Positions 1,174 through 63,194 are shown, numbered from the whole stretch's first letter. The stretch is 63,954 bases of DNA, filler included, from Candidatus Babelota bacterium (GCA_017999075.1; 8 parts of 8 records of this genome joined end to end with filler, not necessarily neighbours in it); one strand, 5' to 3'. Notes: a model not told the origin generated them from the sequence alone. A program made the numbers and translations.

Positions 1174-1233
1174 TTAATTTCTGAAAATTATGGATATTGC
1201 GCTTTGAAATAATTTAAATTTATTTACAATATT

Positions 1234-1253
1234 TTAATTGATCAATCAATTAA
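1234..1253. promoter_or_regulatory. Near-perfect 20-bp palindrome, possible repressor operator
   Basis: TTAATTGATCAATCAATTAA about 65 bp upstream of the ferredoxin start. It is AT-rich, so it could be chance. Confidence 0.3.
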
Positions 1254-1316
1254 GAGGTTGGTAAACCAATCATTTCATAAGAATAAAAAATTACAATTAA
1301 ATCTGCAGGACTTAAA

Positions 1317-2081
1317 ATGAAAATATTTTATTTTACCGCAACAGGAAATTGTCTGGATGTAGCTAAAAGATTTGAATGCGAACTAATATCAATACCAAAT
1401 ATATTGAAACGTTCAGAGAAACAAGAGATTACGTTTAAAGATGATAAAATAGGAATTATTTTTCCATGTTACGTACTGATTGCCCCGAAAATTATACGCG
1501 AATTTATTGATAAAGTTAAACTAAACAGCGATTATATTTTTGCTATTATGACTTACGGCAATTTTCCAGGCGATGGAATTAACTGGTTTGTAAAATACTG
1601 CGATAAACGCGATATTAAAATCAGCTATGCAAATGATCTTCTAATGATAGATAATTATCTGCCGATATTTGATATTCAGAAGCAAATCGAAAAAGAGCCG
1701 GAAAAAAAGATTGAAGAACAGATTGAAAAAATTAAAAAAGATATTTTTGATTCAAAAAAAATAATTGTGAAACATGGTTTTCTTAATAAATTAGCCTCTG
1801 GAATACTTCAATATTTCTATGATTTCCTGTTGGTTAATGGATATAAAAAATTCATTGTTAATAGCGGATGCAATAGATGCGGCATATGTCAGCAAGTCTG
1901 TCCAAGAAACAATATCGTTATAAAAAACAAATCTGAAATCGGCAATAAATGTGAATTCTGTTTGGCCTGTATTAACTTATGTCCACAAAAAGCTATTATA
2001 TATAAGAATGAAAAAAATCCTGATTACAGATTTAAAAATAGAAATGTAAGTTTAAAAGAAATAATTAATTCCAATAATTAA
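1317..2081 (+). CDS. EFR1-family ferredoxin (flavodoxin-like N-terminus + 2x[4Fe-4S] domain)
   Basis: N-terminal 'FYFTATGNCL'; CNRCGICQQVCP and CEFCLACINLCP motifs. Confidence 0.88.
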   Translation: MKIFYFTATGNCLDVAKRFECELISIPNILKRSEKQEITFKDDKIGIIFPCYVLIAPKIIREFIDKVKLNSDYIFAIMTYGNFPGDGINWFVKYCDKRDIKISYANDLLMIDNYLPIFDIQKQIEKEPEKKIEEQIEKIKKDIFDSKKIIVKHGFLNKLASGILQYFYDFLLVNGYKKFIVNSGCNRCGICQQVCPRNNIVIKNKSEIGNKCEFCLACINLCPQKAIIYKNEKNPDYRFKNRNVSLKEIINSNN

Positions 2082-3101: not shown

Positions 3102-5642
3102 TCAGAATTCCATTTTAATGCCTGTAAAAGCAGAAAGTTTTTTATAATTCATATCAGAATTTTCAAAATCATTTATATCATAAACTATTTTGAGGGTATA
3201 ATTATTTTTTATTTTAGGGAGTTTCTGAAGAAAAATAAATTCGTATTCTAATTTTTGTTTTTTAGAATCCTGATCGATCACTGAAGTTTTGTTTAAATCA
3301 TAATAATATGAAATTGACGAGCTCACAGAATTTTTAGAATATTTCAACGAACAACTTCCATTTATGAATTTATCTTTTTTTTCGTCTATTGTTTTGTATC
3401 TGTATTTTCCGCGCAAATCAATGTTCAGAATATTAAATATTTTTTTCGTATACGAATTATAATATTCATACTGTCTGGATTTTGAAATTGTAAAATTCAC
3501 TTTATCATCTTCATTTTCCCTTTCATAAGACACGTACAAATTCAACGCATTAGACAGCAAAGTATTTGAAATTTTAAAATTAAACAATAAATTTTCATTA
3601 TACTTATCTCTCTTTGAATTTCCGGACAGAAGTTCATTATAAGTTTTTCTGAGTTCGGACGTATTTTCGATTTTTATTTTATTAAGCGGCTTAATATCGT
3701 TTTTAGTAAAAGGAAGATAAGTCAAATTAGAAGTATAACTGTTTAAATAATTTGTTTTATCAAAATATTCGTCAAGGTTATCATTCTGGTATATAGTCGA
3801 AAATTTAATATTCAAATCCTTAACTGATTTATTTATATAAGTAAAATCAAACTTTTGCCTGTCAATTGTAGCAATTCCATTCATAGTAACATAATCAGGA
3901 TCAATTCTGATATAATTCAGCATACAATTATTATTATTATTAGGCGCATAATTAGTTTTGATTTCTATTGCGTTTCCTATAATGCTCTCAGTATTGACAG
4001 ATAAATCCGTAAAATAGGAATAAATAAATTCGTATTGAACAGTTAATTTACTGAATGGCAGTATTTTACCTGAAAAACTTATAAGAGTATTTTTTCCCGG
4101 GATAAAAACATTCGAATCATATACTATAGAATTTCTGTCATCTTCAGAATAAACAAAACTGAATATTCCGCTGCTTTTTTTATCTATCGCTATATTCAAA
4201 TTCAGTCCTAAATTCAAACGTTCAAAATTCTGAAAATCTTCAGGCCTTCTGTCTCTTCCTGCAAAAAATTTCAAAACTTCTTTATTCCCAGGAATTTTAT
4301 AATCAATCATAATTCCTTCCTGCGAATTATTAAAAGTCATTTTTGTGAACATAGGAAATATATTCCCTGCCGTAATAACCAGACTTTTAGTTTTATATTC
4401 TGCAGTAATTTTGTCAAGGTCATATTCACGTTCATCATAATTGCTTCCTTTTAATTTTAAAAGACCGGCAAAAATTCCTGTTTTATCTTTTAAATTAACT
4501 TTAAACTCGGCATCAGCAGAAACTTTATTATTATGTTCTATCAATTCTCCAGAAGATTCAATATCTCCTTTAACCTGAATGTCTTCATTGCTTAACGAGA
4601 CAACAGCACTGATTTTTTTCAGCGGCTGAGCAGGCTTAGCGCTCATACTGTTAATCAATGATTTTTGTTCAGATGACAATTCTATGATTTTTTTTCCTGT
4701 TTTCAATTGTTCTCTGATATCTTTAAAAATTTTATCCGCTTCATCGTGAATTTTATTTGCTGATTCTATTACGAATTCATCCAGCGCCTGTTTATCAGAA
4801 ATTCCTATTTCCACAGAATAAACCGGAGTATAGTATAAATATTCAGTATAAAAATTTTTCTTTTCCGTAATAATTTTTCCGTCCTGAGAAGAAACAATTT
4901 TAAAATCAACCAGTAATTCATACCTTTTTTCCAAAACCTGATTTGAGGAATTTACCCTATTGTCAACCAATTGAAAATTTTTAATCAGCCCTTCAAGTTT
5001 AAATTGTCCGTTTAAATTCACATCATAACTTGAAGAAGAATTCTTAAAACTTTTTTCAAGCTCATTTTTCAAATAATCGCGCAATCCCAATTTGTTTACA
5101 AGCGGCGCTTCATTTTCATTATGATTAAACCAATTTATAAAAATAGATACTTTATAATCGACAGATGATATAGATTGCGTCTGAGGTCTAAAAACTTTTT
5201 TTCTTAAATTTATATTTTCAGTTAACTGGTCAAACATAGCTCCAACAACAGGATTATCTTTTTCCGCGTATTCTCTGAATTTTTCTAAAAATTTTTCAAG
5301 ATTGTTCAGGTTTTGTTCTGACATTCTCTTTATATTTGATTGCAGCAGAATCAATTGCTCAGCGTATTTCTGATAATCTTCAATTTTTGCAAGTGAATAT
5401 GCATATAATATTTTTCCATTAATCTGATTCACATCTATAATTTTATCTGCCAATAATTGATTCAAACTATTTTTCAAATCCTGAGCAGTTTTTTTAATTA
5501 CATTTTCAATTATCAAATTATTGAATACAGTTTGCGTGTCCGGTGGTGGAGCAGACTCCGCATAAAGCGTATGAATAGTTAAAATTAAAAATGTTATAAT
5601 TATAAAAAAACGATTATATATTTTCATGGTGGTATAATCCAA
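3102..5642 (-). CDS. Large exported protein: signal peptide, helical region, LptE-like domain and C-terminal outer-membrane beta-barrel
   Basis: Signal peptide 'MKIYNRFFIIITFLILTIHTLYA' (likely start 5627). Middle segment 'KLEGLIKNF...RYELLVDFKIVSSQDGKII...KQALDEFVIESANKI'. About 500 aa of amphipathic strands ending 'AFTGIKMEF'. Confidence 0.55.
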   Translation of the reverse strand: MDYTTMKIYNRFFIIITFLILTIHTLYAESAPPPDTQTVFNNLIIENVIKKTAQDLKNSLNQLLADKIIDVNQINGKILYAYSLAKIEDYQKYAEQLILLQSNIKRMSEQNLNNLEKFLEKFREYAEKDNPVVGAMFDQLTENINLRKKVFRPQTQSISSVDYKVSIFINWFNHNENEAPLVNKLGLRDYLKNELEKSFKNSSSSYDVNLNGQFKLEGLIKNFQLVDNRVNSSNQVLEKRYELLVDFKIVSSQDGKIITEKKNFYTEYLYYTPVYSVEIGISDKQALDEFVIESANKIHDEADKIFKDIREQLKTGKKIIELSSEQKSLINSMSAKPAQPLKKISAVVSLSNEDIQVKGDIESSGELIEHNNKVSADAEFKVNLKDKTGIFAGLLKLKGSNYDEREYDLDKITAEYKTKSLVITAGNIFPMFTKMTFNNSQEGIMIDYKIPGNKEVLKFFAGRDRRPEDFQNFERLNLGLNLNIAIDKKSSGIFSFVYSEDDRNSIVYDSNVFIPGKNTLISFSGKILPFSKLTVQYEFIYSYFTDLSVNTESIIGNAIEIKTNYAPNNNNNCMLNYIRIDPDYVTMNGIATIDRQKFDFTYINKSVKDLNIKFSTIYQNDNLDEYFDKTNYLNSYTSNLTYLPFTKNDIKPLNKIKIENTSELRKTYNELLSGNSKRDKYNENLLFNFKISNTLLSNALNLYVSYERENEDDKVNFTISKSRQYEYYNSYTKKIFNILNIDLRGKYRYKTIDEKKDKFINGSCSLKYSKNSVSSSISYYYDLNKTSVIDQDSKKQKLEYEFIFLQKLPKIKNNYTLKIVYDINDFENSDMNYKKLSAFTGIKMEF

Positions 5643-5647
5643 ATAAG

Positions 5648-7756
5648 TTAATATGGGGTAGCCGGAATATCAGGAAAATTTTTAATAAATATCAAACCAT
5701 TTTTATCGCTTAAAATTTTCCAGCCGTTATTTTCTTTAATAAGCTCAAAAGAAGCATTAACTGTAATATCCTGATTTCTTTCTATATCGTCAAACTTAAA
5801 TTTTCTTTTAAAAACAAAATCAACCTGCGCCCTCGAAGAATTCATAATATTAATTTTTTCATTCTGATAAACGCATGTCATAGTAACAGTTTTATCAAAA
5901 ACTTTTTTTATGCTTGTCTGCACATCCGTATAGTCTAAATAACCTTCATTACTTCCTGAAAATGACGAAGCAAGACAGTCAATAAACAAATCTTTATCAT
6001 TAGTCAAATAAGATTTACATAAATCCGAAAGTAAATCTTTCACCATATCCTGTTGGGTTTTATTTATAAAAGTAAGTTTTTCCAGAGGATAAAAATAGTC
6101 TTCTTCAAAAGTGCGGCCGTCATCCGATACAGCGATAATCTTAAATTTATATACAGAATTATCCTGAGGTTTAAACGAATATTTGAATTGATAAGGCTGC
6201 TGTTGTTTAATGAAAGTTATATTATTAAAACTGCCTCCGTCATCATAAGATATTGTAAAAGATTTCAATGCATTAGAACCGGTTAAATTTCCAGTAATAG
6301 AAATCATATCATTTTCTAAATCTTCTTTTGTGAAACTGGATTCTTTTTCAAATATTTCGACTGATTTATTATTTAATCTTATGTCCGAAATTATAATTTC
6401 AACAGGTTCTGCGGCAGTAGTTTCAGGTATATCAGAAGAAATAATTTCAGAAGTATCAGAAATATTTCTTTCCGCAGCTGAAGTATCAGAAATTACTGAT
6501 GTATCTTCAATAATTTGTTCTGAATCAGAGGCGGCAGCAGCAGGTTCAGCAAGGTTTATCGTAAATGAAGAAAATGTATTGGCATCATTAATAGAAATAA
6601 TTTCATTATCTGTATTAAATGCAGCTACAAACCACGAATATTGAATTTTATTTTTCAACGGTTCCACAGAATCATTTTCAGCAAATTGATATTTATTTTC
6701 GCTTATATTTTTTATCATTATTATATTGTTCTCAGAAATAGGAGTTTTCGACAAATAAAATTGATAATAATCCACGCCTTGAATTGGATCCCATAAAAAT
6801 AAAGGGATTAAATTAGTAATACTGGAATTGTTCGCAGGTTCAATCCTTTGAATATATTTTTTTTCAGGTTTAAGTATTACTCCGGTATAAGGCGGCTGAG
6901 TTAATGATGGAAAATAATAGTCCACATTTTCATCAACGACATATTCAATTTCTTCTTTAATCACAATTTTAGGTTCTTGAGTAGTCTGCGCCGGTTCCAA
7001 AGAAGGCGTTGAAGTTAAAACAGGCTGCTGCTGAACAGAAACAGGCGTTCTTATTTCATTTTCCTGTTCCTGCGAAGGTTCTTGCTGTGCATTTTGATTC
7101 TGAGTTTCCTGTTCTTTAATTGCAGCAGGCACATTCTGAACAGGAGCAGAAACAGGTTCACTAACATTCTGTACAGTATCTGCGCCAAATGATATTTCTA
7201 TATCTGTAAAAGAATTGCTTATTACTTCATCAAGAAAAATTATTTCTTCAATTTCCTGAACTGTCTGCTTTACATCCTGTTGCTGCTGTTCAGTTTGCTG
7301 AGGCAGTACAACAGGCGCAGACTGCTGAGGTTCATTCTGCTGCGATGATGAAGATTCAGATATCTGCGGTTTCGGTTCTTCAGCAGATTTTACAGGTTCA
7401 TAAGCAGCAGAACTTTTCTCATCTGCGGTTTTTTCTTGAGTCTGAACAGTATCCGCTGCTGAACTAATATTAACTTCATACGAACTGCTTACTGTTTCTT
7501 CAACCCATATTATTTCTTCAGTTATTCCCAAATCCAAAGAACCACTATCCTGAATATTTTGCTGATGAACTTCTATTTTCTGTTCTAATTTATCACCTTG
7601 ACTTATTTCTACAGCATTGTCTTCTCTTAATAATTCAGGTCCTCTAAAAAAATTATTGAACCCTTCAGGATATTCATAAACCTTCGCTATTAATAAATTT
7701 TGCGCACATATTATTATAATAATCAAAATAAACAATGACCCGTATCGTAAATTCAT
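5648..7756 (-). CDS. Secreted acidic protein with Q/E/P/S low-complexity stalk, Ig/FnIII-like domains and C-terminal NTF2-like domain
   Basis: Signal peptide, long low-complexity region, FnIII-like 'PLFLWDPIQGVDYYQFYLS...YSWFVAA', and NTF2-like 'LCKSYLTNDKDLFIDCLASSF...FELIKENNGWKI'. Confidence 0.55.
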   Translation of the reverse strand: MNLRYGSLFILIIIIICAQNLLIAKVYEYPEGFNNFFRGPELLREDNAVEISQGDKLEQKIEVHQQNIQDSGSLDLGITEEIIWVEETVSSSYEVNISSAADTVQTQEKTADEKSSAAYEPVKSAEEPKPQISESSSSQQNEPQQSAPVVLPQQTEQQQQDVKQTVQEIEEIIFLDEVISNSFTDIEISFGADTVQNVSEPVSAPVQNVPAAIKEQETQNQNAQQEPSQEQENEIRTPVSVQQQPVLTSTPSLEPAQTTQEPKIVIKEEIEYVVDENVDYYFPSLTQPPYTGVILKPEKKYIQRIEPANNSSITNLIPLFLWDPIQGVDYYQFYLSKTPISENNIIMIKNISENKYQFAENDSVEPLKNKIQYSWFVAAFNTDNEIISINDANTFSSFTINLAEPAAAASDSEQIIEDTSVISDTSAAERNISDTSEIISSDIPETTAAEPVEIIISDIRLNNKSVEIFEKESSFTKEDLENDMISITGNLTGSNALKSFTISYDDGGSFNNITFIKQQQPYQFKYSFKPQDNSVYKFKIIAVSDDGRTFEEDYFYPLEKLTFINKTQQDMVKDLLSDLCKSYLTNDKDLFIDCLASSFSGSNEGYLDYTDVQTSIKKVFDKTVTMTCVYQNEKINIMNSSRAQVDFVFKRKFKFDDIERNQDITVNASFELIKENNGWKILSDKNGLIFIKNFPDIPATPY

Positions 7757-8268: not shown

Positions 8269-8368
8269 NNNNNNNNNNNNNNNNNNNNNNNNNNNNNNNN
8301 NNNNNNNNNNNNTTAATTAATTAANNNNNNNNNNNNNNNNNNNNNNNNNNNNNNNNNNNNNNNNNNNN
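8269..8368. other. Artificial contig linker (N44-TTAATTAATTAA-N44)
   Basis: 100 nt carrying a stop-in-all-six-frames spacer, identical at all 7 junctions. Confidence 0.99.
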
Positions 8369-51607: not shown

Positions 51608-52210
51608 TTACTTTGTCGGCAGTGAATAATAATATTTATAACTTTCATCATAATCAATAATTTTCACTTTGTATTTTTTTATTGAAGAAACTGCGCCTAT
51701 AACAATAACTTTATTTTTGTTTATTACACCGAAATATTCGCCACGTTTAGTTGAACCAAGTATTTCAATATTATATTCGCTATCCAATTCAATCACAGTT
51801 TCATCGGTTTTAGAAGCGACATTATCTATTTTTTTTATTAGATCTGCTTTAGCAGATTTGCCCGATTTTGTAAAATCTGTAATTTTGACCAGTATTTTAT
51901 CTCCGAGTTCAACGTCATCGTTTATTAAAACCCTGAAATTGTTAATAAGTCCGTAATAGTTTTTTCCGGTTTTTCCGATCACAATCATTTCGTATTCTTT
52001 ATCAATTTCAGGCAGCGGCAGATTTTCTTCCTCAGAAGATTCCGAAAGATATAATTTAAAATCGTCGTTTTTGTTTTGTAATTCCTGTTTTTCGAAATCT
52101 TCAAGTAATTTAACAGATGGATTTGAACTGCACGAGCTTATAAATATAATTATAAAAATCAGTATTATATTTTTATAAATCCAGTCATTTTTCATTTTTA
52201 TATTCCGCAT
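51608..52210 (-). CDS. Lipoprotein with two TRAM-like domains
   Basis: Lipobox 'ISSC' (likely start 52195) and two ~60-aa repeats 'EY.(M/I)...G......G.IN...V.........(V)KI.D'. Confidence 0.6.
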   Translation of the reverse strand: MRNIKMKNDWIYKNIILIFIIIFISSCSSNPSVKLLEDFEKQELQNKNDDFKLYLSESSEEENLPLPEIDKEYEMIVIGKTGKNYYGLINNFRVLINDDVELGDKILVKITDFTKSGKSAKADLIKKIDNVASKTDETVIELDSEYNIEILGSTKRGEYFGVINKNKVIVIGAVSSIKKYKVKIIDYDESYKYYYSLPTK

Positions 52211-52224
52211 TTATAGGGTTTATT

Positions 52225-53994
52225 TTAATAATTAAATATTTTAAAACAGTTTCTGCCTGATCTTTTAGCTTCATATAAACTGCTGTCTGCAAATTCAATA
52301 AGTTCGGTTGAAGACATTCCTTTTTTATAGAAACAAGCGCCTATACTTATTGTAACATGATGATCCTGTTTATCGCCTTTAAAAACATAAGCATCAATAT
52401 TTTTTCTTATTCTTTCGAGTATTTGGGGAAGAGTACCTTCCTGAAGATTAAATAAAATAATGCTGAATTCTTCTCCGCCGTATCTTGCAAGCATGTCAGG
52501 CTCGCGTTTTGCTTTTTTTAAATCGAATCCGCGTATTGAATTTTTTAATACCTTGGCTACTTCTTTTAAAATAATATCGCCTTCCTGGTGTCCAAACGAA
52601 TCATTGAATTTTTTAAAAAAATCTATATCTATCATACATAACACAATTGATTTGAAATTATCGGAAAAATAAATATACTCTTCAAGTTTTTGGAGAAAAT
52701 GTCTTTTTAGAAATATTCCTGTCAAACCGTCGGTTATAGCCATATCATACAATCTCGCGTTTTCGAGAGCTGTCATAGAATGGCTTGCAAGTAATTCTAT
52801 TATAGAATGGTTATCCTGAGTTAGTTCTACGTTTTTTCCTATTATCAATATGATAGCTCTTAATGATTCGTTTAAAACCAAAGGTATTCCCATATATCCG
52901 ACATTTTTGTCAGGAATAGAATTGTTGTAAAACAATTGCGTTTCAGGCATAGTTTCGAGTTCTTTAGTAAACTCAATTTTCCAGGATGAACAAACCCTGC
53001 CAAGCAATCCTTCAGTAAAATTCAGAGTTATACTCGAATCTGAAACTCCGACAGCGGCTGTAATAGTAAATTTATTAATCGTAAAATCAGGTATTACAAG
53101 AGCGCATTTTTCCGATTCGAAATAATCAGTGAATGTATGTACTATTATATTTGATAATTCATCACGGTTAATCCTGGAACTGATTTTCATACTCAATAAT
53201 TGAAGCATATTAAGGTTTTTTATTTTTTCATCAAGTTTTTCTGTCATATTATTGAATTGAACCGATAATTCGCCTATCTCATCGTTTGAAATTATTTCTG
53301 CACGTTTTGTTAAATCTCCAGCAGCAATTTCATTAGCCGTACGCCTTAATGCCTGAACCGGTTTCAACAGATATTTGGCGAAAAAATATGTTATTATCAA
53401 ACTTCCAGCCAGAGAAACAAATCCCAGCAATAAAGCATCCCAGATCATAGATTTAATTCCGTCAATAACGGAATTTGTTTTTATACCCATAGATAAAATT
53501 CCAATATAATTGTTCGCGTTGTCTTTTAATTTATAATAATGATTTATTATATTATCGTCTTCGTCATATAACAAAAAATATATTTTTTCTTCAAGAAGGT
53601 TTTCTATAGACTGCATCTGCTGCATAATATTATTTCTTAATTTAGTTTCATCATTGTAAAGATATATTTTTTTTGTTGATTCATCGTAAAAATATAAATG
53701 AGATATGATTTCGTCTTTTGGAAGAACTCTTGCAAATAAAGAAATAGTGTCTCTTGGTTTAACATTTTTTGCGTTTCCTGTTCCTGTCATTATACGTGTT
53801 TGAAAATTTTGTATTACAAAATCAAATATGGATGATGAACGTTTTAATAATTCTTTATATTTTTCGGTTTTATAATCGCTTATGCTGAATAGAAGAAGAG
53901 TTGATATAACAAGCAGATTTATAGCTGCAGTCAAAGAAAATATTTTGTAATAAAGTTTGAAATTGAATTTTTTGGAAGTTTTATCTTTTATCAT
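52225..53994 (-). CDS. Membrane diguanylate cyclase (sensor, HAMP, GAF, GGEEF)
   Basis: 'AITDGLTG', 'DIDFFKKFND.FGH..GD', I-site 'REPD', 'RYGGEEF'. Confidence 0.94.
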   Translation of the reverse strand: MIKDKTSKKFNFKLYYKIFSLTAAINLLVISTLLLFSISDYKTEKYKELLKRSSSIFDFVIQNFQTRIMTGTGNAKNVKPRDTISLFARVLPKDEIISHLYFYDESTKKIYLYNDETKLRNNIMQQMQSIENLLEEKIYFLLYDEDDNIINHYYKLKDNANNYIGILSMGIKTNSVIDGIKSMIWDALLLGFVSLAGSLIITYFFAKYLLKPVQALRRTANEIAAGDLTKRAEIISNDEIGELSVQFNNMTEKLDEKIKNLNMLQLLSMKISSRINRDELSNIIVHTFTDYFESEKCALVIPDFTINKFTITAAVGVSDSSITLNFTEGLLGRVCSSWKIEFTKELETMPETQLFYNNSIPDKNVGYMGIPLVLNESLRAIILIIGKNVELTQDNHSIIELLASHSMTALENARLYDMAITDGLTGIFLKRHFLQKLEEYIYFSDNFKSIVLCMIDIDFFKKFNDSFGHQEGDIILKEVAKVLKNSIRGFDLKKAKREPDMLARYGGEEFSIILFNLQEGTLPQILERIRKNIDAYVFKGDKQDHHVTISIGACFYKKGMSSTELIEFADSSLYEAKRSGRNCFKIFNY

Positions 53995-54016: not shown

Positions 54017-54063
54017 AAAAATCAGCATCATTATGTTAAATTAACATTTTAATGCTGATTTTT
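54017..54063 (-). terminator. Long hairpin, probable terminator of the OB-fold/TctA/hydrolase operon
   Basis: AAAAATCAGCAT...ATGCTGATTTTT outer stem plus inner ATGTTAA/TTAACAT stem, 7 nt after the hydrolase stop. Confidence 0.7.
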
Positions 54064-54070
54064 TATAACA

Positions 54071-55204
54071 TTAATCAAGAGTAGCGTCGCCGAATCCGTC
54101 AGGTTCTTCTTCAAAATCTTTTAAAACCTGTTTTTCTTTTTCCTGAATTTTTTTCTTTATAACTGCAACGACCCAGAAATAGACAGTTAACGGAACAATC
54201 AGAAAACAGATATAATATAACCACCACGGCATAGTAATCAGTTTAGTTGTAAATCTGTCAATATTATGAATTATCATCACTATTGCAGCGTAATCAAGCG
54301 AAAAATTGGTTCTTGGATCGCTTGCTTTAAACAGTTCAAGACCTTCTGATCTTGCTTTATGAAGAGGCCAGAACAGAGAACCTCCGATGTGTCCGGTCAT
54401 GTCTTCAGTTATATGAACAATAAATCCGAGATTAGCGACAAGTCCGTATAACCACCAATTATGAAGGTTTAACAAGTAAGCTATTATAAACACAGGTATT
54501 GACAACATAAATCCGAGGACATAGGAATGACTCCATGTTCTGTGCCATGGAAGCCAGTTAAAATATATTTTTCCATCAGATTCTTTTCTGAATTCAAATT
54601 GAGTTCCCATAAAAATTTCAACAGACGACGGTTTTACAGGTCCAGGTGGATGATCCGGTCCTTTCAACAAATGCCGCAGCCATTGAACCGATTTATTGAG
54701 CCAGCATATCTGATTAGTTCTGCTTTTCAATTCATATTTAAATTTTGCTCTTCCTACTCTGTTGGTTTTAGGCGCAGTTCCAGGAATAGGACATTGAGAA
54801 GTTTTTACTATATTATCTATTTGAATAATAACTCCGTCATTTTCAAAAATCATATTATATTTTCGCCATAAACTTGCGCCCAACTGAATTGTGTACAACT
54901 GTATTTTTGTCGGGTTTCCGGAATCACCCGCTTCATTTACTGCTTTAGCAAAAGCGTCTGCAATTTTTTGAGGATCAGGGTTACGAGGATCAGGATCTTC
55001 TTCGTTTTCAGCTATTGAAAAAAACTGCCCGAGTTTAAAATCCATAGTATCAGGCATAACTCCGAATGCTCCGGCAAGCAATATTATAAATGAACCTGAC
55101 ACAGCTTCAGGATTGTCGAGTTTCATAGTAGTTGACATTCTTACGACTTCAGGAATGAACGTGGTTGCAGCTATTGCAGACATAAAATGAGTTAATCCTT
55201 TCAC
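54071..55204 (-). CDS. YdjM/DUF457-like membrane metal-dependent hydrolase with a large insertion
   Basis: 'MKGLTH', 'PDTMD', 'HRTWSHS', 'HITED', 'LFWP' metal-ligand pattern; GTG start 1 nt after the upstream stop. Confidence 0.75.
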   Translation of the reverse strand: MKGLTHFMSAIAATTFIPEVVRMSTTMKLDNPEAVSGSFIILLAGAFGVMPDTMDFKLGQFFSIAENEEDPDPRNPDPQKIADAFAKAVNEAGDSGNPTKIQLYTIQLGASLWRKYNMIFENDGVIIQIDNIVKTSQCPIPGTAPKTNRVGRAKFKYELKSRTNQICWLNKSVQWLRHLLKGPDHPPGPVKPSSVEIFMGTQFEFRKESDGKIYFNWLPWHRTWSHSYVLGFMLSIPVFIIAYLLNLHNWWLYGLVANLGFIVHITEDMTGHIGGSLFWPLHKARSEGLELFKASDPRTNFSLDYAAIVMIIHNIDRFTTKLITMPWWLYYICFLIVPLTVYFWVVAVIKKKIQEKEKQVLKDFEEEPDGFGDATLD

Positions 55205-55205
55205 T

Positions 55206-56621
55206 TTACATCAACCCCAGGAAACGAGCTATAGCATCGCCATAACCAGCCATATTTAACGCTATAGGAACAAGAAGAACAGCCATACAATGCGACCGCC
55301 TGCAGCTATAAAATACCGGAATTAAACCGACGCATGTGGTAGCAGCAGCTACGCCTATAGCCATCCATCCGCCGCCCATTACAAATAATAAAACAAGTAA
55401 TACAACAGTTACTATTCCATATACAAGTCTGACATTTATTTTAGGCATAATTTTAATCGTCCAGTCAGTAAAATATATCAATAACAACAAAGACAATGCT
55501 GAAGTGAAAAATATAGTGGCCAGCATTACTGCAAAATCTCCTCGTTCAGGAGAAAATATAGGTTTTAACAGAATATTCATTCCTCCGCGTCCCATACCAT
55601 TTGGAGTTAAATCAGTAATTGCAAACAAAAATAAAAATGCTCCGACATAATAAATAATTTTATTAATTCCTCCTGCTACAAGAAACACTCGTTCCTGCTG
55701 GTAATAAATTTCAGGGATATGGATGTGAACTGCAGTATTAGGATTTTTGGGTTTTTCAAAAGAAGCTTGTCTTAAATTTCTGTGGTTTGTTATATGTCCG
55801 GCAAATATAGCTGAAATACCAACTGTTACTGCAGGAATAAATGCTGTTATCAATCCTCCGATAATTCCGGGAAGCGCGCCGTATCCGAAATCAGACCATT
55901 TACAATTAAGATATTTTGAATTGTATTGTTTAACCGGATATTTCGCTTCAGACATCATAGCCTGAATTATTGAAGGAAACGCAAAAAAACCAAGAAAAAT
56001 CGGCATTATATTTTGGAAACTTTTTTCAGGAGGAGCTAATGGTTTGCTTGTGATTATCAAACCTATTATGGAAGACAGTACAAAAGTCAGTAATCCTGCA
56101 AAACAATTGTGCCATGCGTTTTTAAATTTAGCCCATGGTGTTTTGCCTCTTCCCGCACCTTTCGGCCATTCGCTCATAACATAAAAAACAAGAATTAGTC
56201 CTATTATCCAGTGAAGATGAGCTCTCATAGGCAGATAAATATAAGGTGCTATATAAAACACAAATGGAGTAAGTAAGACTAATATTACAGCACCGACAAA
56301 AGTTGCAAGACCTGATATAACAGACGCATCTCTGCCTTTACCGCTTTTCAGCATGTCAGTAGTAGGCAGTATTGAAGCTCCGGCAGATTCGTCAGCAGCA
56401 GAAAAAAAAGTCATTGGTATTGTATTAATAAAAGCAAACGATACCATAAGAGCCATGAAAAACGGACCGATTGTATAATATGGAATTTTAGTGCTGAGTT
56501 CAATCCATAATATTATAGCTATGCCTGCAACATTATAAATGTGCAGAGAAGGTATCATACACAATATACCGCCTGCTAATGTTCCAAGCAAACTGAAAGC
56601 TATTACAATTATTCCTTCCAT
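55206..56621 (-). CDS. TctA/DUF112 family membrane protein (archaeal-like, stand-alone)
   Basis: About 12 TMs with an internal repeat ('GTLAGGILCMIPSLH' / 'GIIGGLITAFIPAV'), 'SILP...M...GKG..A' and 'PIFLGFFAFP'. Confidence 0.75.
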   Translation of the reverse strand: MEGIIVIAFSLLGTLAGGILCMIPSLHIYNVAGIAIILWIELSTKIPYYTIGPFFMALMVSFAFINTIPMTFFSAADESAGASILPTTDMLKSGKGRDASVISGLATFVGAVILVLLTPFVFYIAPYIYLPMRAHLHWIIGLILVFYVMSEWPKGAGRGKTPWAKFKNAWHNCFAGLLTFVLSSIIGLIITSKPLAPPEKSFQNIMPIFLGFFAFPSIIQAMMSEAKYPVKQYNSKYLNCKWSDFGYGALPGIIGGLITAFIPAVTVGISAIFAGHITNHRNLRQASFEKPKNPNTAVHIHIPEIYYQQERVFLVAGGINKIIYYVGAFLFLFAITDLTPNGMGRGGMNILLKPIFSPERGDFAVMLATIFFTSALSLLLLIYFTDWTIKIMPKINVRLVYGIVTVVLLVLLFVMGGGWMAIGVAAATTCVGLIPVFYSCRRSHCMAVLLVPIALNMAGYGDAIARFLGLM

Positions 56622-56625
56622 AATT

Positions 56626-57790
56626 TTACTCGATTTTAATAGATTTTGGATTTTTAATTTTCAACTGCAATTTTTCTTTGTATTCGTCAACAGTAAAAAT
56701 TCCTGATAACGAAGCACCTTTTTCAATATCTGCCATACCGGGTATTTTTTCAAGCATATTTTCCCATATCATTATTTTTATTTTACCTGTGCCATCATCA
56801 AGGGTAAGAGACAGACCTTTATCATTAGAACTTACAAATTTAACTTCAGCTTTTTCGATTTTTACTGATTTTCCTGCATCTGCAAGAGTTAATTCACCGA
56901 TTTTTTTTAATTGGGCGTCTTCCTGTTTTTCAGTTTGCTTATATTTTGAAGAAGAGTTTTCTTCTTTTTTGCTAACAGCAACAGTACCCACTTTTTTTAT
57001 TGAAGTTACGTCTGCAATATTTGCCTGTATTTTCCCTCTGTATTCAGAAATTTTAAGAACCACTTCAATCTCATTTCCTTCTGTTGATATATTCTTTTTG
57101 TTTTCTTCAGATATGGCATTATAATCGCCGTCAAATATAGTTACATTTATACTCCCTGTTTTATCAGTCAATTCAAGAAGATACAAATCTTTTCCTTTTT
57201 TAGTTTTCTTTTTTGAAAACAGAGTTATTCCTGCCTTAACTTTATAAATATTATTAACATTATTTTGGTTTAAATCTCCGATATTTATTGATTTTACATT
57301 GGCAGTTGTTGCTCCTGAACCTGCAGAATCAAGTTCAGATTCGGTTATTTCGACCACTCCCAATTTTTTTATTTTTAAATAATCCAGGATAGCAGCCTGA
57401 AATTCGCCGCGGAATTCTCCTATTCGAATTGCAGTTTCAAATTCTGTTCCCGGCGTAGAAAAAATTTGTTTTATTTCATCCGGCAATTTTTGAAATCCTG
57501 CTTCAAATAAAGTCATTCCGATTTTTCCTGTTTCATCTCCTAAATTTATATTATACATTTTAGTCCCTTTTTTAGTAACTCGTTCAGAGACTGAAATCAC
57601 GTGAACTTTCACTTTAACTATTTCATCGATATTTTCTTTCTTTAATTCTCCGAGTTTAATTTCCTTCATTTGAAATTTTTCTAAAACCTGCAGCCTTTCA
57701 GGTATTTGTAAAAACATTGAAACCCCGAATTTATCAGTAATATTTAAAACTCCTGTAATCTGAACAGAATCTCCGACTGCTGGCATATTT
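56626..57790 (-). CDS. Multi-OB-fold (RPA/tRNA_anti-type) nucleic-acid-binding protein, 5' truncated
   Basis: Three complete repeats and one partial, with 'I..L...', 'L.D.TG.I...(F/W)' and 'E(Y/F)(R/K)...Q' motifs. Confidence 0.8.
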
Positions 57791-57890
57791 NNNNNNNNNN
57801 NNNNNNNNNNNNNNNNNNNNNNNNNNNNNNNNNNTTAATTAATTAANNNNNNNNNNNNNNNNNNNNNNNNNNNNNNNNNNNNNNNNNNNN
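57791..57890. other. Artificial contig linker
   Basis: N44-TTAATTAATTAA-N44. Confidence 0.99.
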
Positions 57891-57891
57891 G

Positions 57892-59253
57892 GCAATATCA
57901 GCGGGACAAATATTATCTTTAATTTTTGCAGTATATTCCATATATCTTTTCAGTTTGATAATGCGTATTTTAATAAAAGACATTTTTTTTATTATCTGCT
58001 CAGTATTTTATTTCACTTTCAGTTACTGGTTCTGGTATTACAGCATGGATGCAGAACTTCATATTCCAAATATTTTTTTCATGCTTTTATCGATTAATTT
58101 GTACATTAAACTTTACAGGGAGCCATCTGTAAAATACGTTATTTATTCAGCAGTAATAAACTCGTTTCTAATCATATTTCATCAAACAAATCTAATAATT
58201 TTTTCAATAACATTATTATTTAATTTAGAATATTTTTCAGATAAAAAAAAAGTTTTAGTTATATGGGTAATAAGTTTTTTAATGATAACCATTATTCCGT
58301 ACATAATAATTCCTCATTATTTCTTAGGAATATCTTCTACATCAGATCTAATAGAATGGCTGACACGTTACCAATCAAAAGGATATTGGTCCAACATAAC
58401 TCAAAATTATTTAATTGATTCTATGAAAGGATTCTCATTTGCTCTAACAGGCGGCGGAAAAATAAAATTAATTACAAATTCGGTTTTGGCATTACTGGTA
58501 TTGGTGTATTATTTTAAAAAGATTTTTTTAAAAAAAATTGACAGAATCGAATTATACATTTTTTGTATTTTTATTTTTTATTCCGGAATTGTAATTTACT
58601 GGCATCCAGCAAACCCTGAAAATTGGTGGGCAGTGATGCCATTCTCAATTTTATTGTTTAAAGCTGCGGAATCACTAAAAAATACACCGGTATTATTTAG
58701 AGGATTTGATTTTACGCAAAAAAATATTAGTTCGCTGCGAATACTCTTATTGTCATTTTTTTCAATATTCTCAATATTTCTATTCAAACTATTCCTTAAT
58801 AAAATAATTAAACTGTTTTTCATAATATGGCTTTTATACAGTTTTAACGCTGTATTTAACGGTTATATTGTAAAATACCATAAAAAAGAATCAAATCAAT
58901 GTTTTAATATTATTCACAATTTGAATAAAATTTATAATCAAGGCGATTTAATTATATCTCTCGGAGAAGGCGATCTTGCAAATTTAAATGTTTACCTGAA
59001 ATATTTCACAAAATATAATTTCACTACAATAGCCATTGAACTTGATTTATATTCAGGTTCTTTAGAAAAAACCATTGAATCAATAGCTTGCAAAATAAAT
59101 CAAACTCACGGAAAAATTATTTTGATAAACGATTTATACGATGTAAACGGAATATCTCAGCTTTCAAAAATGCATAAATTAAACAATTTGAAAAACAGTT
59201 TACACGAATTCATTTATAAAATAAATAAAAATAAAGTAATTATTAATCTATGA
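57892..59253 (+). CDS. GT-C fold (PMT/ArnT/DUF2723-like) polytopic membrane glycosyltransferase, 5' truncated
   Basis: Frame is open from the contig edge; 'FSYWFWYYSMDAELH', 'IIFHQ' and many TMs. Confidence 0.6.
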   Translation, partial: AISAGQILSLIFAVYSIYLFSLIMRILIKDIFFIICSVFYFTFSYWFWYYSMDAELHIPNIFFMLLSINLYIKLYREPSVKYVIYSAVINSFLIIFHQTNLIIFSITLLFNLEYFSDKKKVLVIWVISFLMITIIPYIIIPHYFLGISSTSDLIEWLTRYQSKGYWSNITQNYLIDSMKGFSFALTGGGKIKLITNSVLALLVLVYYFKKIFLKKIDRIELYIFCIFIFYSGIVIYWHPANPENWWAVMPFSILLFKAAESLKNTPVLFRGFDFTQKNISSLRILLLSFFSIFSIFLFKLFLNKIIKLFFIIWLLYSFNAVFNGYIVKYHKKESNQCFNIIHNLNKIYNQGDLIISLGEGDLANLNVYLKYFTKYNFTTIAIELDLYSGSLEKTIESIACKINQTHGKIILINDLYDVNGISQLSKMHKLNNLKNSLHEFIYKINKNKVIINL

Positions 59254-59271: not shown

Positions 59272-59667
59272 ATGAAAAAATTACATGCTTTCACAATAAT
59301 CGAACTGTTATTATCAGTTTTTATAATTGCCACTTTGACTTTCAGCATACTGTCAGCAATTAATTATACATTATCTCAAAATGCAATAATAACCGCAAAA
59401 AATTCAGCTTATATCATAGCAGACAATGCATTAAAAAGTAAATCAAGTTTAAACGAATATTCTGTAAAATTCAATAATGTTGATTACACAGTAAAGATTT
59501 CCGAAAAAAAAATGAAACCAAAAGATTTGTTCAATTTTTCAGATGACTATCTAAATCTAATTTCTGATAATATAGAAATAACAGTAAAATCATCAGCAGT
59601 CAAATGGAATATAGGAACCCGCCAGTTTACTGTAAATATTGAAAAATATAAAGATGCAGAATTTTAA
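59272..59667 (+). CDS. Type IV prepilin/pseudopilin-like protein
   Basis: Class III signal 'MKKLHA|FTIIELLLSVFII' with Glu at +5 and Ala at -1. Confidence 0.75.
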   Translation: MKKLHAFTIIELLLSVFIIATLTFSILSAINYTLSQNAIITAKNSAYIIADNALKSKSSLNEYSVKFNNVDYTVKISEKKMKPKDLFNFSDDYLNLISDNIEITVKSSAVKWNIGTRQFTVNIEKYKDAEF

Positions 59668-59723: not shown

Positions 59724-62700
59724 ATGAAATATTCGATCATCAAATCTCCGCGGATAAATGCTGTAAAAATTGCCGGGGTTTATATTTTTATTTCTGCATT
59801 ATGGATTTATTTTTCTGATAATATTTTAAGATTGTTATACAATACCGCTTCTGTAGTAGTTGATATTTCTATTTATAAAGGATTAACTTTTATTATAATA
59901 ACAGGAGCATTATTATATTTCCTTGTTATCAAATTTTTATCAAAAATTAAACAGAACGAACAAAATTTTTCTGTAGCTTTTCATTCAAGCCCTTCATTAA
60001 TAATTATATCGTCTATTAATAACAATCAGTTTGTTGAAGTTAACAAATCTTTTGAAAATCAAATCGGGTATACCCGTGAAGAAATTATAGGATGCAACGT
60101 TGACGGCCTGAATTTATTGGAAAATCCTGAAGAATGGAACGAACTGAAAAATCTGTTATTATCAGAAAAAAAATACCGAGATAAAGAAACTAAAATTAAA
60201 ACTAAAAGTGGAGAACATCTTTTCGTATTGGCATCGGCAGAATTAATTGATTTTGCCGGTAAGAAATGCATTATGATTGTAGCTGAAGACATAACGGAAA
60301 GGAAAAACGCAGAAGACAAACTAAAAGCCACAGTCGAATTGCTGCGCATTTGTAACAAAAGTGAAAATCTAACAGAACTAATAAAATCCCTTACAGTATA
60401 TTTTCAGCAATATACTTCTTGTACCTCTATAGGTGTGCGCCTCCGCAAAGGAAACGACTTTCCGTATTACGAAACAATAGGATTTTCTGAAGAATTTATT
60501 CTTGCTGAAAACAATTTATGCGCTAAAGATCAAAAAAATGAATTAATCCGCGACTATATCGGACATCCCGCGCTTGACTGTATGTGTGGAAATATACTTT
60601 GCAAACGATTCGATCCTTCAAAACCATTTTTTTCTCAACGTGGAAGTTTCTGGTCAGGCTGCACTTCAGAATTACTCGCAAATACTACTGAAGCCGACAG
60701 ACAATCAAAAACACGTAACAGATGTAATGGCGAAGGTTATGAATCTGTCGCATTAATTCCTTTGCGGGTTAAAGACGAAACATTCGGGTTGTTTCAATTT
60801 AATGATAAGCGAAAAGGACTTTTTACTGAAAAAAAAATTTCTTTCTACGAAGATCTTATAGATTATGTTGCAATAGCGGTTGCTAATTTAAAAAAAGACG
60901 ATGAAATACAGGAATCAAATAGATTCAATCAGCAAATCATTAACAGCGCTAATGAAGGCATTATTGTCTATGACAATAATCTGAATTATACTGTATGGAA
61001 TCCTTACATGGAACGTTTGACAGGATTGACTTCTGATAAAGTCATTGGGAAACATCCTTTAACTCTTTTTCCATTCATAAAAGAGACTCCCCTTTTAAAA
61101 AATCTTTATTTGGCGCTGGACGGAAAGACATTAGAAACTCTGACTTTTCAATTTTATTTAATACATAACCAAAAAAAAGGGTGGGTTACCGATACAAGCG
61201 CTCCGCTTTTAAATAATGATGGAAAAATTATAGGAATAATTTCTGTTGTCCGCGATATTACTTCTGAAAAATTTGCTAAAGATGCTTTATACAACAGCGA
61301 AAAAAAATACCATTCTCTTTTTGAAAATATGCTTGAAGGGTTTGCATTATGCAAAATGATTTATGATTATAACAATAACCCCGTAGACTTTATATATCTT
61401 GACACCAATAATTCCTTTTCAAAATTAACAGGATTAAAAGATGTAATAGGAAAAAAAGTTACTGACATAATTCCCCAAATAAAACATTTAACTCCTGAAT
61501 TATTCGATATTTATGGAAGAGTGTCAACAACAGGCAACCCTGAAAAATTTGAAATCGACTTCAAACCTCTTTCAATTTGGCTTTCAATTTCAGTTTATAG
61601 TCCTGAAAAAGGATATTTTATTGCAGTATTTGATAACATAACCGAACGCAAACAAATTCAACAAGAACTAATAAGTGCAAATCAAAGATTAAAATTAGCT
61701 ACTTCATCATTAAATCTCGGAATATGGGATTGGGACATAAAAAATAATGTCTTACTATGGGATGACAGAATGTACGAAATATACGGAATATCTAAAATTA
61801 CTTCTAAACCAAATTTTGAAATATGGAAAAACAGTATAATTACAGATGACCGCGAAACTGCCTTGGATATAACAAAAAAAGCTATTGAAAGCCAATATGA
61901 ATATGATACTGAATTCAGAATTCAACTGCCTGACGGTAATATAAAAAATATAAAAGCAAATGCGATTATAATAAGAGATGATGATGGAACAGCTTCACGT
62001 ATGATAGGATTAAATCAAGATATCACTGATTTAAAACATCTTGAAGAACAACTTCGCCAGTCTCAAAAAATGGAAGCTATCGGACAGCTTGCTGGAGGAA
62101 TAGCCCATGATTTCAACAACATTCTTTCTATAATTTACGGTAATTGCGTTTTAATGCAAATGGAACTTGAAAACAACAAATTTAAAGATATAATTGATTC
62201 TATATTAACTGCATCAAAAAGAGCAGCAAACCTAACAGGCAGTTTACTTGCATTCAGCCGTAAACAAATAATAAAACCAAAAATTGTTAACCTAAATGAA
62301 ATAATATTAAATTTTACAAAAATGATTACAAGAATTATAGGGGAGGATATAAAACTTAAAACTATTTTCAATGTAGATCCGTTAAATGTCTTTGCAGATA
62401 CAGGGCAGATTGAACAGGTTCTGATAAATATGTCGACAAATGCGCGCGATGCTATGCAAAATGCCGGAATTCTTATTATAGAAACAGAACTTAAAGAAAT
62501 AGATAAAAATTTCAATCATTCGCTTGATGATTATCAGCCAGGCAAATATGCTGTCATATCTATATCCGATACAGGCAAAGGAATTGACAAAGAGTTACAA
62601 AAAAAAATTTTTGATCCATTTTTTACAACAAAAGAAGTGGGAAAAGGAACAGGGCTCGGACTTTCAATAGTTTACGGTGTGATTAAACAGCACAAAGGTT

Positions 62701-63194
62701 ATATAAATGTCTACAGTGAGCCAGACAAGGGTACAACTTTCAGAATTTATCTCCCAATTACAAATCAAAAAAAATCTGAAATTGAAGAAAATAAAATTAA
62801 TGATTATCCTCAAATGGGTACTGAAACAATACTTCTTGCTGAAGACGATCCTTTTGTCAGTCAATTTATCGAAACAATTTTAAAAAAATTCGGATATAAA
62901 ATTATACTCGCGCAAAACGGCGATGATGCAATAAATAAATTCAGGGAAAATACTGATAAAATACAATTTATTATTATGGATATGGTGATGCCTGAAAAAA
63001 GCGGAAAAGACGCTTATTCTGAAATCTGTAATCTTAAACCTGATATAAAAATTCTTTTTATAAGCGGTTACAGCAATGATTTACTTGCAAACAAAGGATT
63101 GTTTGAAAATAATTATGAGATACTTGTAAAACCGTTTCAACCTTTAGAACTGATAAAAAAAATCAGAAAAATTCTTGATTCAGTAAATAAATAA
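59724..63194 (+). CDS. Hybrid sensor histidine kinase (2 TM, multiple PAS, Cys-rich GAF, HisKA, HATPase, REC)
   Basis: 'QKMEAIGQLAGGIAHDFNN', 'NARDAM', 'FFTTKEVGKGTGLGL' and a C-terminal REC; GAGGAGG RBS. Confidence 0.94.
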   Translation: MKYSIIKSPRINAVKIAGVYIFISALWIYFSDNILRLLYNTASVVVDISIYKGLTFIIITGALLYFLVIKFLSKIKQNEQNFSVAFHSSPSLIIISSINNNQFVEVNKSFENQIGYTREEIIGCNVDGLNLLENPEEWNELKNLLLSEKKYRDKETKIKTKSGEHLFVLASAELIDFAGKKCIMIVAEDITERKNAEDKLKATVELLRICNKSENLTELIKSLTVYFQQYTSCTSIGVRLRKGNDFPYYETIGFSEEFILAENNLCAKDQKNELIRDYIGHPALDCMCGNILCKRFDPSKPFFSQRGSFWSGCTSELLANTTEADRQSKTRNRCNGEGYESVALIPLRVKDETFGLFQFNDKRKGLFTEKKISFYEDLIDYVAIAVANLKKDDEIQESNRFNQQIINSANEGIIVYDNNLNYTVWNPYMERLTGLTSDKVIGKHPLTLFPFIKETPLLKNLYLALDGKTLETLTFQFYLIHNQKKGWVTDTSAPLLNNDGKIIGIISVVRDITSEKFAKDALYNSEKKYHSLFENMLEGFALCKMIYDYNNNPVDFIYLDTNNSFSKLTGLKDVIGKKVTDIIPQIKHLTPELFDIYGRVSTTGNPEKFEIDFKPLSIWLSISVYSPEKGYFIAVFDNITERKQIQQELISANQRLKLATSSLNLGIWDWDIKNNVLLWDDRMYEIYGISKITSKPNFEIWKNSIITDDRETALDITKKAIESQYEYDTEFRIQLPDGNIKNIKANAIIIRDDDGTASRMIGLNQDITDLKHLEEQLRQSQKMEAIGQLAGGIAHDFNNILSIIYGNCVLMQMELENNKFKDIIDSILTASKRAANLTGSLLAFSRKQIIKPKIVNLNEIILNFTKMITRIIGEDIKLKTIFNVDPLNVFADTGQIEQVLINMSTNARDAMQNAGILIIETELKEIDKNFNHSLDDYQPGKYAVISISDTGKGIDKELQKKIFDPFFTTKEVGKGTGLGLSIVYGVIKQHKGYINVYSEPDKGTTFRIYLPITNQKKSEIEENKINDYPQMGTETILLAEDDPFVSQFIETILKKFGYKIILAQNGDDAINKFRENTDKIQFIIMDMVMPEKSGKDAYSEICNLKPDIKILFISGYSNDLLANKGLFENNYEILVKPFQPLELIKKIRKILDSVNK

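Follow-up and report, generated by a model that had tools for sequence, protein, structure and literature searches.

How DNA crosses the archaeal membrane is not yet settled, and Methanococcus has provided the sole candidate for the transporter, a TctA-like protein whose neighbour is an OB-fold protein. In M. maripaludis, MMJJ_13020, an OB-fold protein with one transmembrane helix, adjoins MMJJ_13030, which is TctA-like and has 11 transmembrane helices. Both genes were hit by transposons, and in-frame deletion of either one abolishes natural transformation, the defect being complemented (PMC10133366; 2023, cited here and below from its accessible part). A TctA-like homologue is essential in Methanoculleus thermophilus too, and the authors propose the TctA-like protein as the DNA transporter otherwise missing in archaea (PMC10133366). 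The accessible part of that paper contains no mention of a bacterial homologue or of a third gene. In the literature searched only this study and its preprint link TctA-like proteins to DNA uptake. Two other described proteins are relevant here, both as presented in the accessible parts of their sources: ComEC, in which a DNA-binding OB fold, a membrane part and a metal-dependent hydrolase-like nuclease are distinguished (PMC12455585), and E. coli YdjM, a LexA-regulated predicted membrane metal hydrolase (PMC11442139). Here we describe a three-gene operon for an OB-fold protein, a TctA-like permease and a divergent YdjM-family membrane protein. It is located at 54017-57790 of a 63,954-nucleotide stretch of DNA (the whole stretch analysed, called below the window) from Candidatus Babelota bacterium (GCA_017999075.1). 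The reading supported best by the data, with a probability which we estimate at about 0.45, is that the trio is a machine for import of nucleic acid.

The operon and its borders are organized as follows:

56626-57789, minus strand: 3' part (387 codons) of the OB-fold gene (open reading frame (ORF); Pfam PF01336, PF13742)
55206-56621, minus strand: TctA-like (DUF112-type) permease, 471 aa (ORF; Pfam PF01970)
54071-55204, minus strand: divergent YdjM-family membrane protein, 377 aa, GTG start (ORF; Pfam PF04307)
54017-54063, minus strand: long hairpin followed by a U-run (folding energy and reading of the sequence)
57790-57899, no strand: non-biological assembly joint, N runs around TTAATTAATTAA (sequence)

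The OB and TctA-like genes are separated by 4 nt (56622-56625) and the TctA-like and YdjM-like genes by 1 nt (55205). The co-orientation of the three genes, both gaps and the closing hairpin are thus exactly as given in the preliminary description of this DNA. The hairpin folds with an energy of -19.6 kcal/mol (z -5.45), and an equally good folding was obtained in none of 200 shuffles; a simple terminator scan does not list it. Together with the U-run, it is likely the intrinsic terminator of the three-gene operon.

The window is composed of about 8 contigs of about 8 kb each, chained by 7 linkers (N runs around TTAATTAATTAA) at positions 8313, 16644, 24939, 33219, 41456, 49689 and 57835. Since it is chained from separate contigs, findings spanning the linkers rest on false linkage. 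The operon belongs to contig C287 (8046 bp) of a genome of 3.83 Mb in 594 contigs, which is 87% complete. The N runs and TTAATTAATTAA stand directly upstream of the ATG of the OB gene (386 aa when counted from this first ATG, 56626-57786), and the gene is cut at its 5' end by the joint at 57790, as had been suspected. Its 5' part (188 codons) was recovered outside the window at the end of contig C130 of the same genome (G000:C130, 2308-2871), the last 564 bases of which match N-terminal parts of full-length OB relatives in a tblastn search against the genome. Residues 1-259 of the relative P0123 are aligned to C130 and residues 263-466 to C287; for the OB protein of locus L004 the corresponding parts are 1-203 and 209-606. 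About 5 codons of the gene are absent between the two contig ends. The piece on C130 encodes a GYF_2 domain (E 1.2e-13), a zinc ribbon CPTCG..CPRC, one transmembrane helix and the start of OB1, and the piece on C287 encodes the end of OB1 and three further OB folds. The complete OB protein has about 580 residues, with GYF domain, zinc ribbon, transmembrane helix and four OB folds.

The three genes form a conserved unit. In a genome scan with one genome per species, 363 relatives of the permease were confirmed, and the best 80 loci were kept for neighbourhood counts. Single-sequence phmmer searches with the window proteins as queries gave an OB match at 71 and a YdjM-like match at 75 of these 80 loci. 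Where there was room on both sides of the permease gene (66 loci), the ordered trio of adjacent genes on the same strand was present in 58 cases, with median gaps of 6 and 12 nt, so the arrangement is more than chance. Strong conservation of the trio supports the preliminary description. A single-helix OB gene stands beside the TctA-like gene at 67 of the 74 loci with room upstream. The module is widespread in bacteria, the 80 permease loci coming from more than ten phyla: Hydrogenedentota, Elusimicrobiota, Lindowbacteria, Sumerlaeota, Muiribacteriota, Auribacterota, Chlamydiota, Planctomycetota, Kiritimatiellota, Lentisphaerota, Chloroflexota and others. This distribution, along with the 363 relatives, disagrees with the initial idea of an archaeal-like system in a bacterium, which implied a rare transfer.

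The eight exceptions among the 66 loci are of several kinds. The YdjM-like gene is 1-2 kb off in L063 and L067, and the OB gene is 1.9 kb off in L048. The other five have no detectable OB gene, and L083 is also devoid of the YdjM-like gene. In L066 (4688-5809) and L076 (325-1446), which belong to Brocadiia-like genomes, a 373-aa secreted protein is encoded in place of the OB protein. No other neighbour was found at more than 8 of the 80 loci.

The window OB protein matches Pfam families PF01336 (E 4e-16, in three stretches) and PF13742 (E 1.6e-7), while its NCBIfam matches, all of them sub-threshold, are with OB regions from DNA polymerase III alpha, SSB, YhaM and replication factor A. PF01336 was detected in 64 of the 66 members of the family. 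Comparison of the family profile with solved structures gave archaeal RPA32 (E 1.1e-7) and YhaM (2.8e-5), followed by AIM2 HIN (3.5e-4), replication factor A (4e-4) and further nucleic-acid-binding OB folds; the best solved relatives of the family are all nucleic-acid binders. The window fragment taken alone gave nothing better than E > 0.06 in the search against solved structures.

Full-length OB relatives start with a zinc ribbon, which is followed by a transmembrane helix. The ribbon (CPxCG..CPxC) is present in 67 of 71 proteins, three of the four without it being cut by contig edges. The hydrophobic helix is present in 64 of the 71 and begins about 10-15 residues after the ribbon. Lysine and arginine residues are more numerous between ribbon and helix than past the helix in 55 of 65 proteins and equal in number in 6, which argues for a location of the ribbon inside and of the OB array outside the cytoplasmic membrane. 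The array is membrane-anchored. Judging by this charge bias, as well as by the order of GYF domain, zinc ribbon and single helix in the 5' part of the gene, it most likely faces outward, in line with the preliminary description. The ectodomain comprises 202-762 residues with 2-6 or more OB folds. Divergence is fastest for the OB protein, compared with the other two products of the operon, in 15 of 15 close pairs. The window and L004 are identical to about 75% in the OB protein, to 96% in the permease and to 95% in the YdjM-like protein. Such a rate is as expected for an exposed binding part.

One peculiarity was noted at locus L006, where a c-di-AMP riboswitch (4464-4614, minus strand; 71 bits) is antisense to what looks like an N-terminal extension of the OB ORF. 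It likely belongs to a divergent upstream gene, and its position indicates that the start of the OB ORF is called too early there.

The permease is a full-length member of PF01970 (E 1.4e-29; score 103.4 bits, cut-off 28.9; profile positions 2-422 of 423). Near its N-terminus it carries the motif PSLHIYN, of which P24, L26, H27, I28 and N30 are invariant in an alignment of 15 permeases. The general form P-x-L-H-x-x-N, to which the preliminary description had drawn attention, occurs in 68 of the 78 bacterial relatives and three of the four probably archaeal ones. In each of the six carrier genomes, including the own genome of the window (G000), there is one PF01970 gene. TctC (PF03401) was found in none of these six, which are incomplete genomes (the own one and G004-G008), and it is likely absent from the carriers. 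For TctB (PF07331) no match was obtained in the own genome at its 87% completeness, and none within the operon or further upstream, beyond the recovered 5' end. The earlier remark that TctB and TctC are missing from the contig can thus be extended to the own genome and to the region of C130 upstream of the OB gene, where neither gene was found. A tblastn search with the permease against 72,556 plasmid records gave no match. NCBIfam contains nothing for the permease or the YdjM-like protein, and no solved structure was matched by either of them in sequence search. The annotation "tripartite tricarboxylate transporter permease" is probably misleading for this clade.

The third protein matches PF04307 (E 2.7e-10; score 40.5 bits, cut-off 29) only at profile positions 53-157 of 176. 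In the genome scan it scores 35.2 bits; an ordinary YdjM encoded on contig C132 of the same genome reaches 100 bits. An alignment of 36 sequences shows invariant M1, K2, G3, H6, D52, D55, H221, H226, H264 and D268, as well as a conserved insert of alpha/beta type, about 160 residues long (roughly 60-225), which matches no family. No meaningful Pfam match was obtained for the insert (E 0.005 at best, in 3 of 36 members), and there is no profile match between it and the OB family. A confident AlphaFold2 model of the protein has a predicted local distance difference test score (pLDDT) of 85.8 and a predicted template modelling score (pTM) of 0.79. A possible kinship of YdjM with P1-nuclease and phospholipase C folds found no support in structure searches and was not used. 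Metal-dependent hydrolase activity of the protein is a prediction. Its subfamily is small and well separated; among 1.84 billion representatives it has 432 clusters at E <= 1e-3, 300 at E <= 1e-10 and 176 at E <= 1e-30. The YdjM-like marker is present in all 4 species genomes of the small phylum to which the window belongs.

Many metagenome loci of high GC content contain a YdjM-like gene with neither TctA nor OB genes. In 4 of 15 such orphan loci that were examined, it is followed on the same strand, at a distance of 25-116 nt, by a gene for a giant secreted protein with lamin-tail domains (LTD) and PLD-like domains, in part with DUF11:

L099, 5809-9225: giant LTD and PLD-like gene after the orphan YdjM-like gene
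L113, 4572-10178: the same
L125, 6566-9130: the same
L134, 1992-6575: the same

Lamin-tail domains accompany extracellular nucleases. The neighbours of this orphan sister clade were counted for the nucleic-acid reading and point the same way. L099 has a patatin-like gene upstream as well. On a metagenome contig of low GC content (L097), the YdjM-like gene is adjoined by a gene for a UvrD-type helicase with an intein splicing domain (3136-6135, plus strand).

Beyond bacteria, a metagenome scan with the divergent YdjM-like query gave 39 loci, and the full trio was found on three contigs with archaea-like neighbours (L107, L119 and L122), L120 being a related copy of the trio. The neighbours are:

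L107: EMG1/NEP1 methyltransferase (E 8e-63)
L119: two Ras-family GTPases and an XPD-like helicase
L122: PF01637 "ATPase domain predominantly from Archaea", DUF234 and MCM_C

The EMG1/NEP1, Ras-type GTPase, XPD-like, DUF234 and MCM_C families are taken by us as archaeal markers, and the three contigs are probably archaeal. Their OB proteins share a ribbon CPSCGR..CPxC, followed by a transmembrane helix and then by OB folds. Identity of the probably archaeal copies to the window proteins is 32-34% for the permease and 29-30% for the YdjM-like protein. In a tree of 88 permeases the four probably archaeal rows stand together on long branches (approximate likelihood-ratio test (aLRT) 87; aLRT 100 for L119/L120/L122), beside clades of Chloroflexota, Planctomycetota, Muiribacteriota and Kiritimatiellota, and the window permease groups with L004, then with Hydrogenedentota, Elusimicrobiota and Lindowbacteria; this is a quick maximum-likelihood tree with midpoint root and long branches meeting, the careful search being unfinished. 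In the control genomes of Methanocaldococcus jannaschii and Methanosarcina acetivorans, TctA and YdjM were matched and TctB and TctC were not. The ESM Atlas contains an all-archaeal cluster of 66 proteins (score 0.79), 466-aa "DNA-binding proteins" commonest in Methanobacteriota, with PF04307 in all of them and PF01336 in 39%. It may represent a natural YdjM-OB fusion and is mentioned as a lead only. A search with a protein labelled Altiarchaeales returned bacterial relatives.

The import reading is based on the conserved three-gene unit, the outward OB array, the lack of TctB and TctC, the probably archaeal copies and the Methanococcus genetics (PMC10133366). According to it, the three proteins would form one inner-membrane machine in which a nucleic-acid polymer or its fragments are captured outside the cytoplasmic membrane and brought in. 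The OB protein would be bitopic, with a cytoplasmic zinc ribbon (preceded here by the GYF domain) and one transmembrane helix, and its approximately four outward RPA-like OB folds would bind single-stranded nucleic acid. The stand-alone TctA-like permease would form the path through the membrane. The polytopic YdjM-like protein, with its His/Asp cluster and inserted soluble domain, may process the substrate at the membrane or replace TctB as a scaffold. The module would then be a bacterial counterpart of the archaeal OB-fold/TctA-like transformation pair, acting beside ComEC and not instead of it. Topology, physical complex, nucleic-acid substrate, direction of transport and hydrolase activity are all putative at present.

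A number of observations weigh against the import reading. ComEC (PF03772) is encoded in all six carriers, by two genes in the own genome (C64 and C210) and in 5 of 5 others, so that competence can be explained without the module. Accordingly, the "non-ComEC" system of the preliminary description fails as a replacement, and of the two genes whose lack in carriers it proposed to test, comEC and tctC, only tctC is likely absent. Weak DUF4131 matches, covering the transmembrane helix and OB1, were seen in 11 of 66 OB proteins with E <= 0.01; the best has E 7.8e-6, and they stay under the gathering score. DUF4131 is the family of the N-terminal OB domain of ComEC. A kinship was not confirmed by hhalign of the OB family against 7 ComEC sequences (probability 0.55%). 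The OB ectodomain has pI values from 4.3 to 9.6, with no consistent basic character. One member of the family weakly resembles CcmE, and the window OB protein weakly resembles BOF/YgiW; membrane-anchored periplasmic OB folds can bind other ligands. TctA proteins belong to the secondary transporters for small anions; that a polymer can pass through a fold of this type is unproven, and the phenotype seen in archaea may be an indirect one. Kinship with MMJJ_13020 and MMJJ_13030 appears from family, architecture and neighbourhood, and for bacteria the reading as a whole is drawn from comparison and archaeal analogy. Concerning the third protein, Foldseek comparison of its model with the PDB gave a best E of 0.077 and none <= 0.001, with no match to a nuclease or to any other solved fold, and the best Z in the wide VIA comparison was 6.6, which is within noise. 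By crude hydropathy and a positive-inside count, its insert, conserved polar cluster and C-terminal tail appear to be on the cytoplasmic face. Conserved residues in the cytoplasm are a poor fit with processing of a substrate outside the cell, and this weakens the earlier proposal that the hydrolase processes the substrate. In the literature YdjM is also called "possibly a phospholipase" (PMC11442139). Taken together, anchoring, conservation, the P-x-L-H-x-x-N motif, the literature on methanogen transformation, which proved real (PMC10133366), and the missing TctB and TctC speak for the initial interpretation, and replacement of ComEC, archaeal rarity and processing outside the cell have to be given up or weakened.

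A more far-reaching form of the import reading is put forward tentatively, our confidence in it being low. The trio might be a second, ComEC-independent import machine common to archaea and to many uncultured bacterial phyla, that is, the long-sought archaeal DNA translocator with the YdjM-like protein as its unreported component. In that case the three separate proteins would be counterparts of the three ComEC domains, with no kinship between them.

The main competing explanation is a secondary transporter of the tripartite type for a small anionic solute (carboxylate, nucleotide or short oligonucleotide), in which the OB protein plays the role of TctC, the YdjM-like protein that of TctB, and no polymer is moved. 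We regard it as rather unlikely. The full-length PF01970 match is in agreement with it, as are the small-molecule specificity known for the TctA fold and the number of components, which is three as in TctABC with TctB and TctC missing. The polytopic YdjM-like protein is conserved as much as TctA, which suits a TctB-like subunit, and import of DNA is already covered by ComEC in the carriers. However, the OB domains resemble nucleic-acid binders and not solute-binding proteins, and an array of varying number (202-762 aa) fits a polymer better than a small ligand. The permease is also too distant from plasmid-borne TctA to be found by tblastn, and the sole genetics available for such a pair concerns uptake of DNA (PMC10133366).

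Another alternative is maintenance of the envelope or its lipids, with the YdjM-like protein as a phospholipid hydrolase, the TctA-like protein moving a head-group product or precursor, and the OB protein binding a surface polymer such as an oligosaccharide. Sister-clade genes do adjoin PLD-like proteins and in one case a patatin-like phospholipase, and OB folds are able to bind oligosaccharides. On the other hand, OB folds of the PF01336 type and the best solved relatives of the family bind nucleic acid, the PLD-like neighbours could equally be nucleases considering the company in which lamin-tail domains are found, and no conserved lipid or cell-wall gene lies near the trio; the explanation is improbable. 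Still smaller is the chance that the trio works outward, exporting nucleic acid or displaying it, as would be the case if extracellular DNA or RNA were released for a biofilm or for cell-cell exchange. The same parts could run in either direction, and in the own genome a diguanylate cyclase gene lies directly downstream, but this neighbour is not conserved across the 80 loci. An outward capture array fits import better, and the archaeal phenotype is lost uptake (PMC10133366).

The surroundings of the operon are as follows:

52225-53994, minus strand: HAMP and GGDEF diguanylate cyclase, directly downstream of the operon terminator
51608-52210, minus strand: likely lipoprotein of 200 aa; it contains two internal repeats and weakly matches the TRAM domain (E 2.8e-4)
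59272-59667, plus strand, next contig: pilin-like protein; its N-terminal methylation motif is weak (PF07963, E 0.0032, below the cut-off)
59724-63194, plus strand, next contig: 1156-aa ORF, by the look of its sequence a multi-PAS hybrid histidine kinase
G000:C130 (L084), 136-1416, minus strand: M20 peptidase near the 5' end of the OB gene

Genes past 57790 belong to another contig, as the joint begins there, and are unlinked to the operon. Upstream of the OB 5' end on C130, in divergent orientation, are fliW, csrA and the M20 peptidase gene. Succinyl-diaminopimelate desuccinylase is, as we assume, an M20-type enzyme. A putative enzyme of this name was also obtained in the Methanococcus screen (PMC10133366). 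The likeness is probably a coincidence, because the M20 neighbour is not conserved in related loci. A PADLOC scan for defence systems gave no match for any of four proteins, and an Rfam scan of 11 loci revealed no riboswitch or leader tied to the module. The DNA of the locus is present in five sequencing runs from wastewater or activated sludge (two studies), and no RNA run is listed as containing it. The locus is carried by an uncultured wastewater bacterium.

The data give the archaeal pair a defined conserved architecture and a third, equally conserved partner. The unit occurs in ten or more bacterial phyla as well as on contigs of probably archaeal origin, which provides hundreds of natural variants for structures, binding assays and heterologous tests. 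The possibility is raised that many bacteria have an uptake route besides ComEC.

Comparison with the known systems can be summarized as follows. Like TctABC, the operon has three components and a permease that is a full-length PF01970 member. It differs from TctABC in having no TctB or TctC, in the PSLHIYN motif, in its OB-array and YdjM-like partners, and in a permease which tblastn could not detect among the 72,556 plasmids. With YdjM/YbcI (DUF457, LexA regulon) the third protein shares the PF04307 match above the cut-off, the N-terminal MKGxTH and conserved His and Asp positions, whereas only the second half of the profile is matched, an insert of about 160 residues is present and the subfamily is small and separate. 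The OB domains of RPA/replication factor A and YhaM are the best profile matches among solved structures, and tandem OB folds are common to both sides; those proteins are cytoplasmic and soluble, while the array of the trio is tethered by a transmembrane helix and predicted to be outside. ComEC, as described in the accessible part of its source (PMC12455585), has a similar three-part logic of an outward OB fold, a polytopic membrane part and a metal hydrolase-like part. The trio contains neither PF03772 nor a beta-lactamase-like (MBL) domain and consists of separate proteins of unrelated families. The closest resemblance is to the pair MMJJ_13020/MMJJ_13030 (PMC10133366), with which the comparison was made by description. 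The host of the window is bacterial and has ComEC, and a third, YdjM-like gene is present in its operon; common to both is a single-helix OB-fold protein beside a stand-alone TctA-like permease, with no TctB or TctC. The OB-fold/TctA-like pair itself was known from one archaeal study (PMC10133366), and what is new is its spread among bacteria, the presence of a third component and the way the receptor-like protein is built, in which a zinc ribbon is followed by a transmembrane helix and an OB array.

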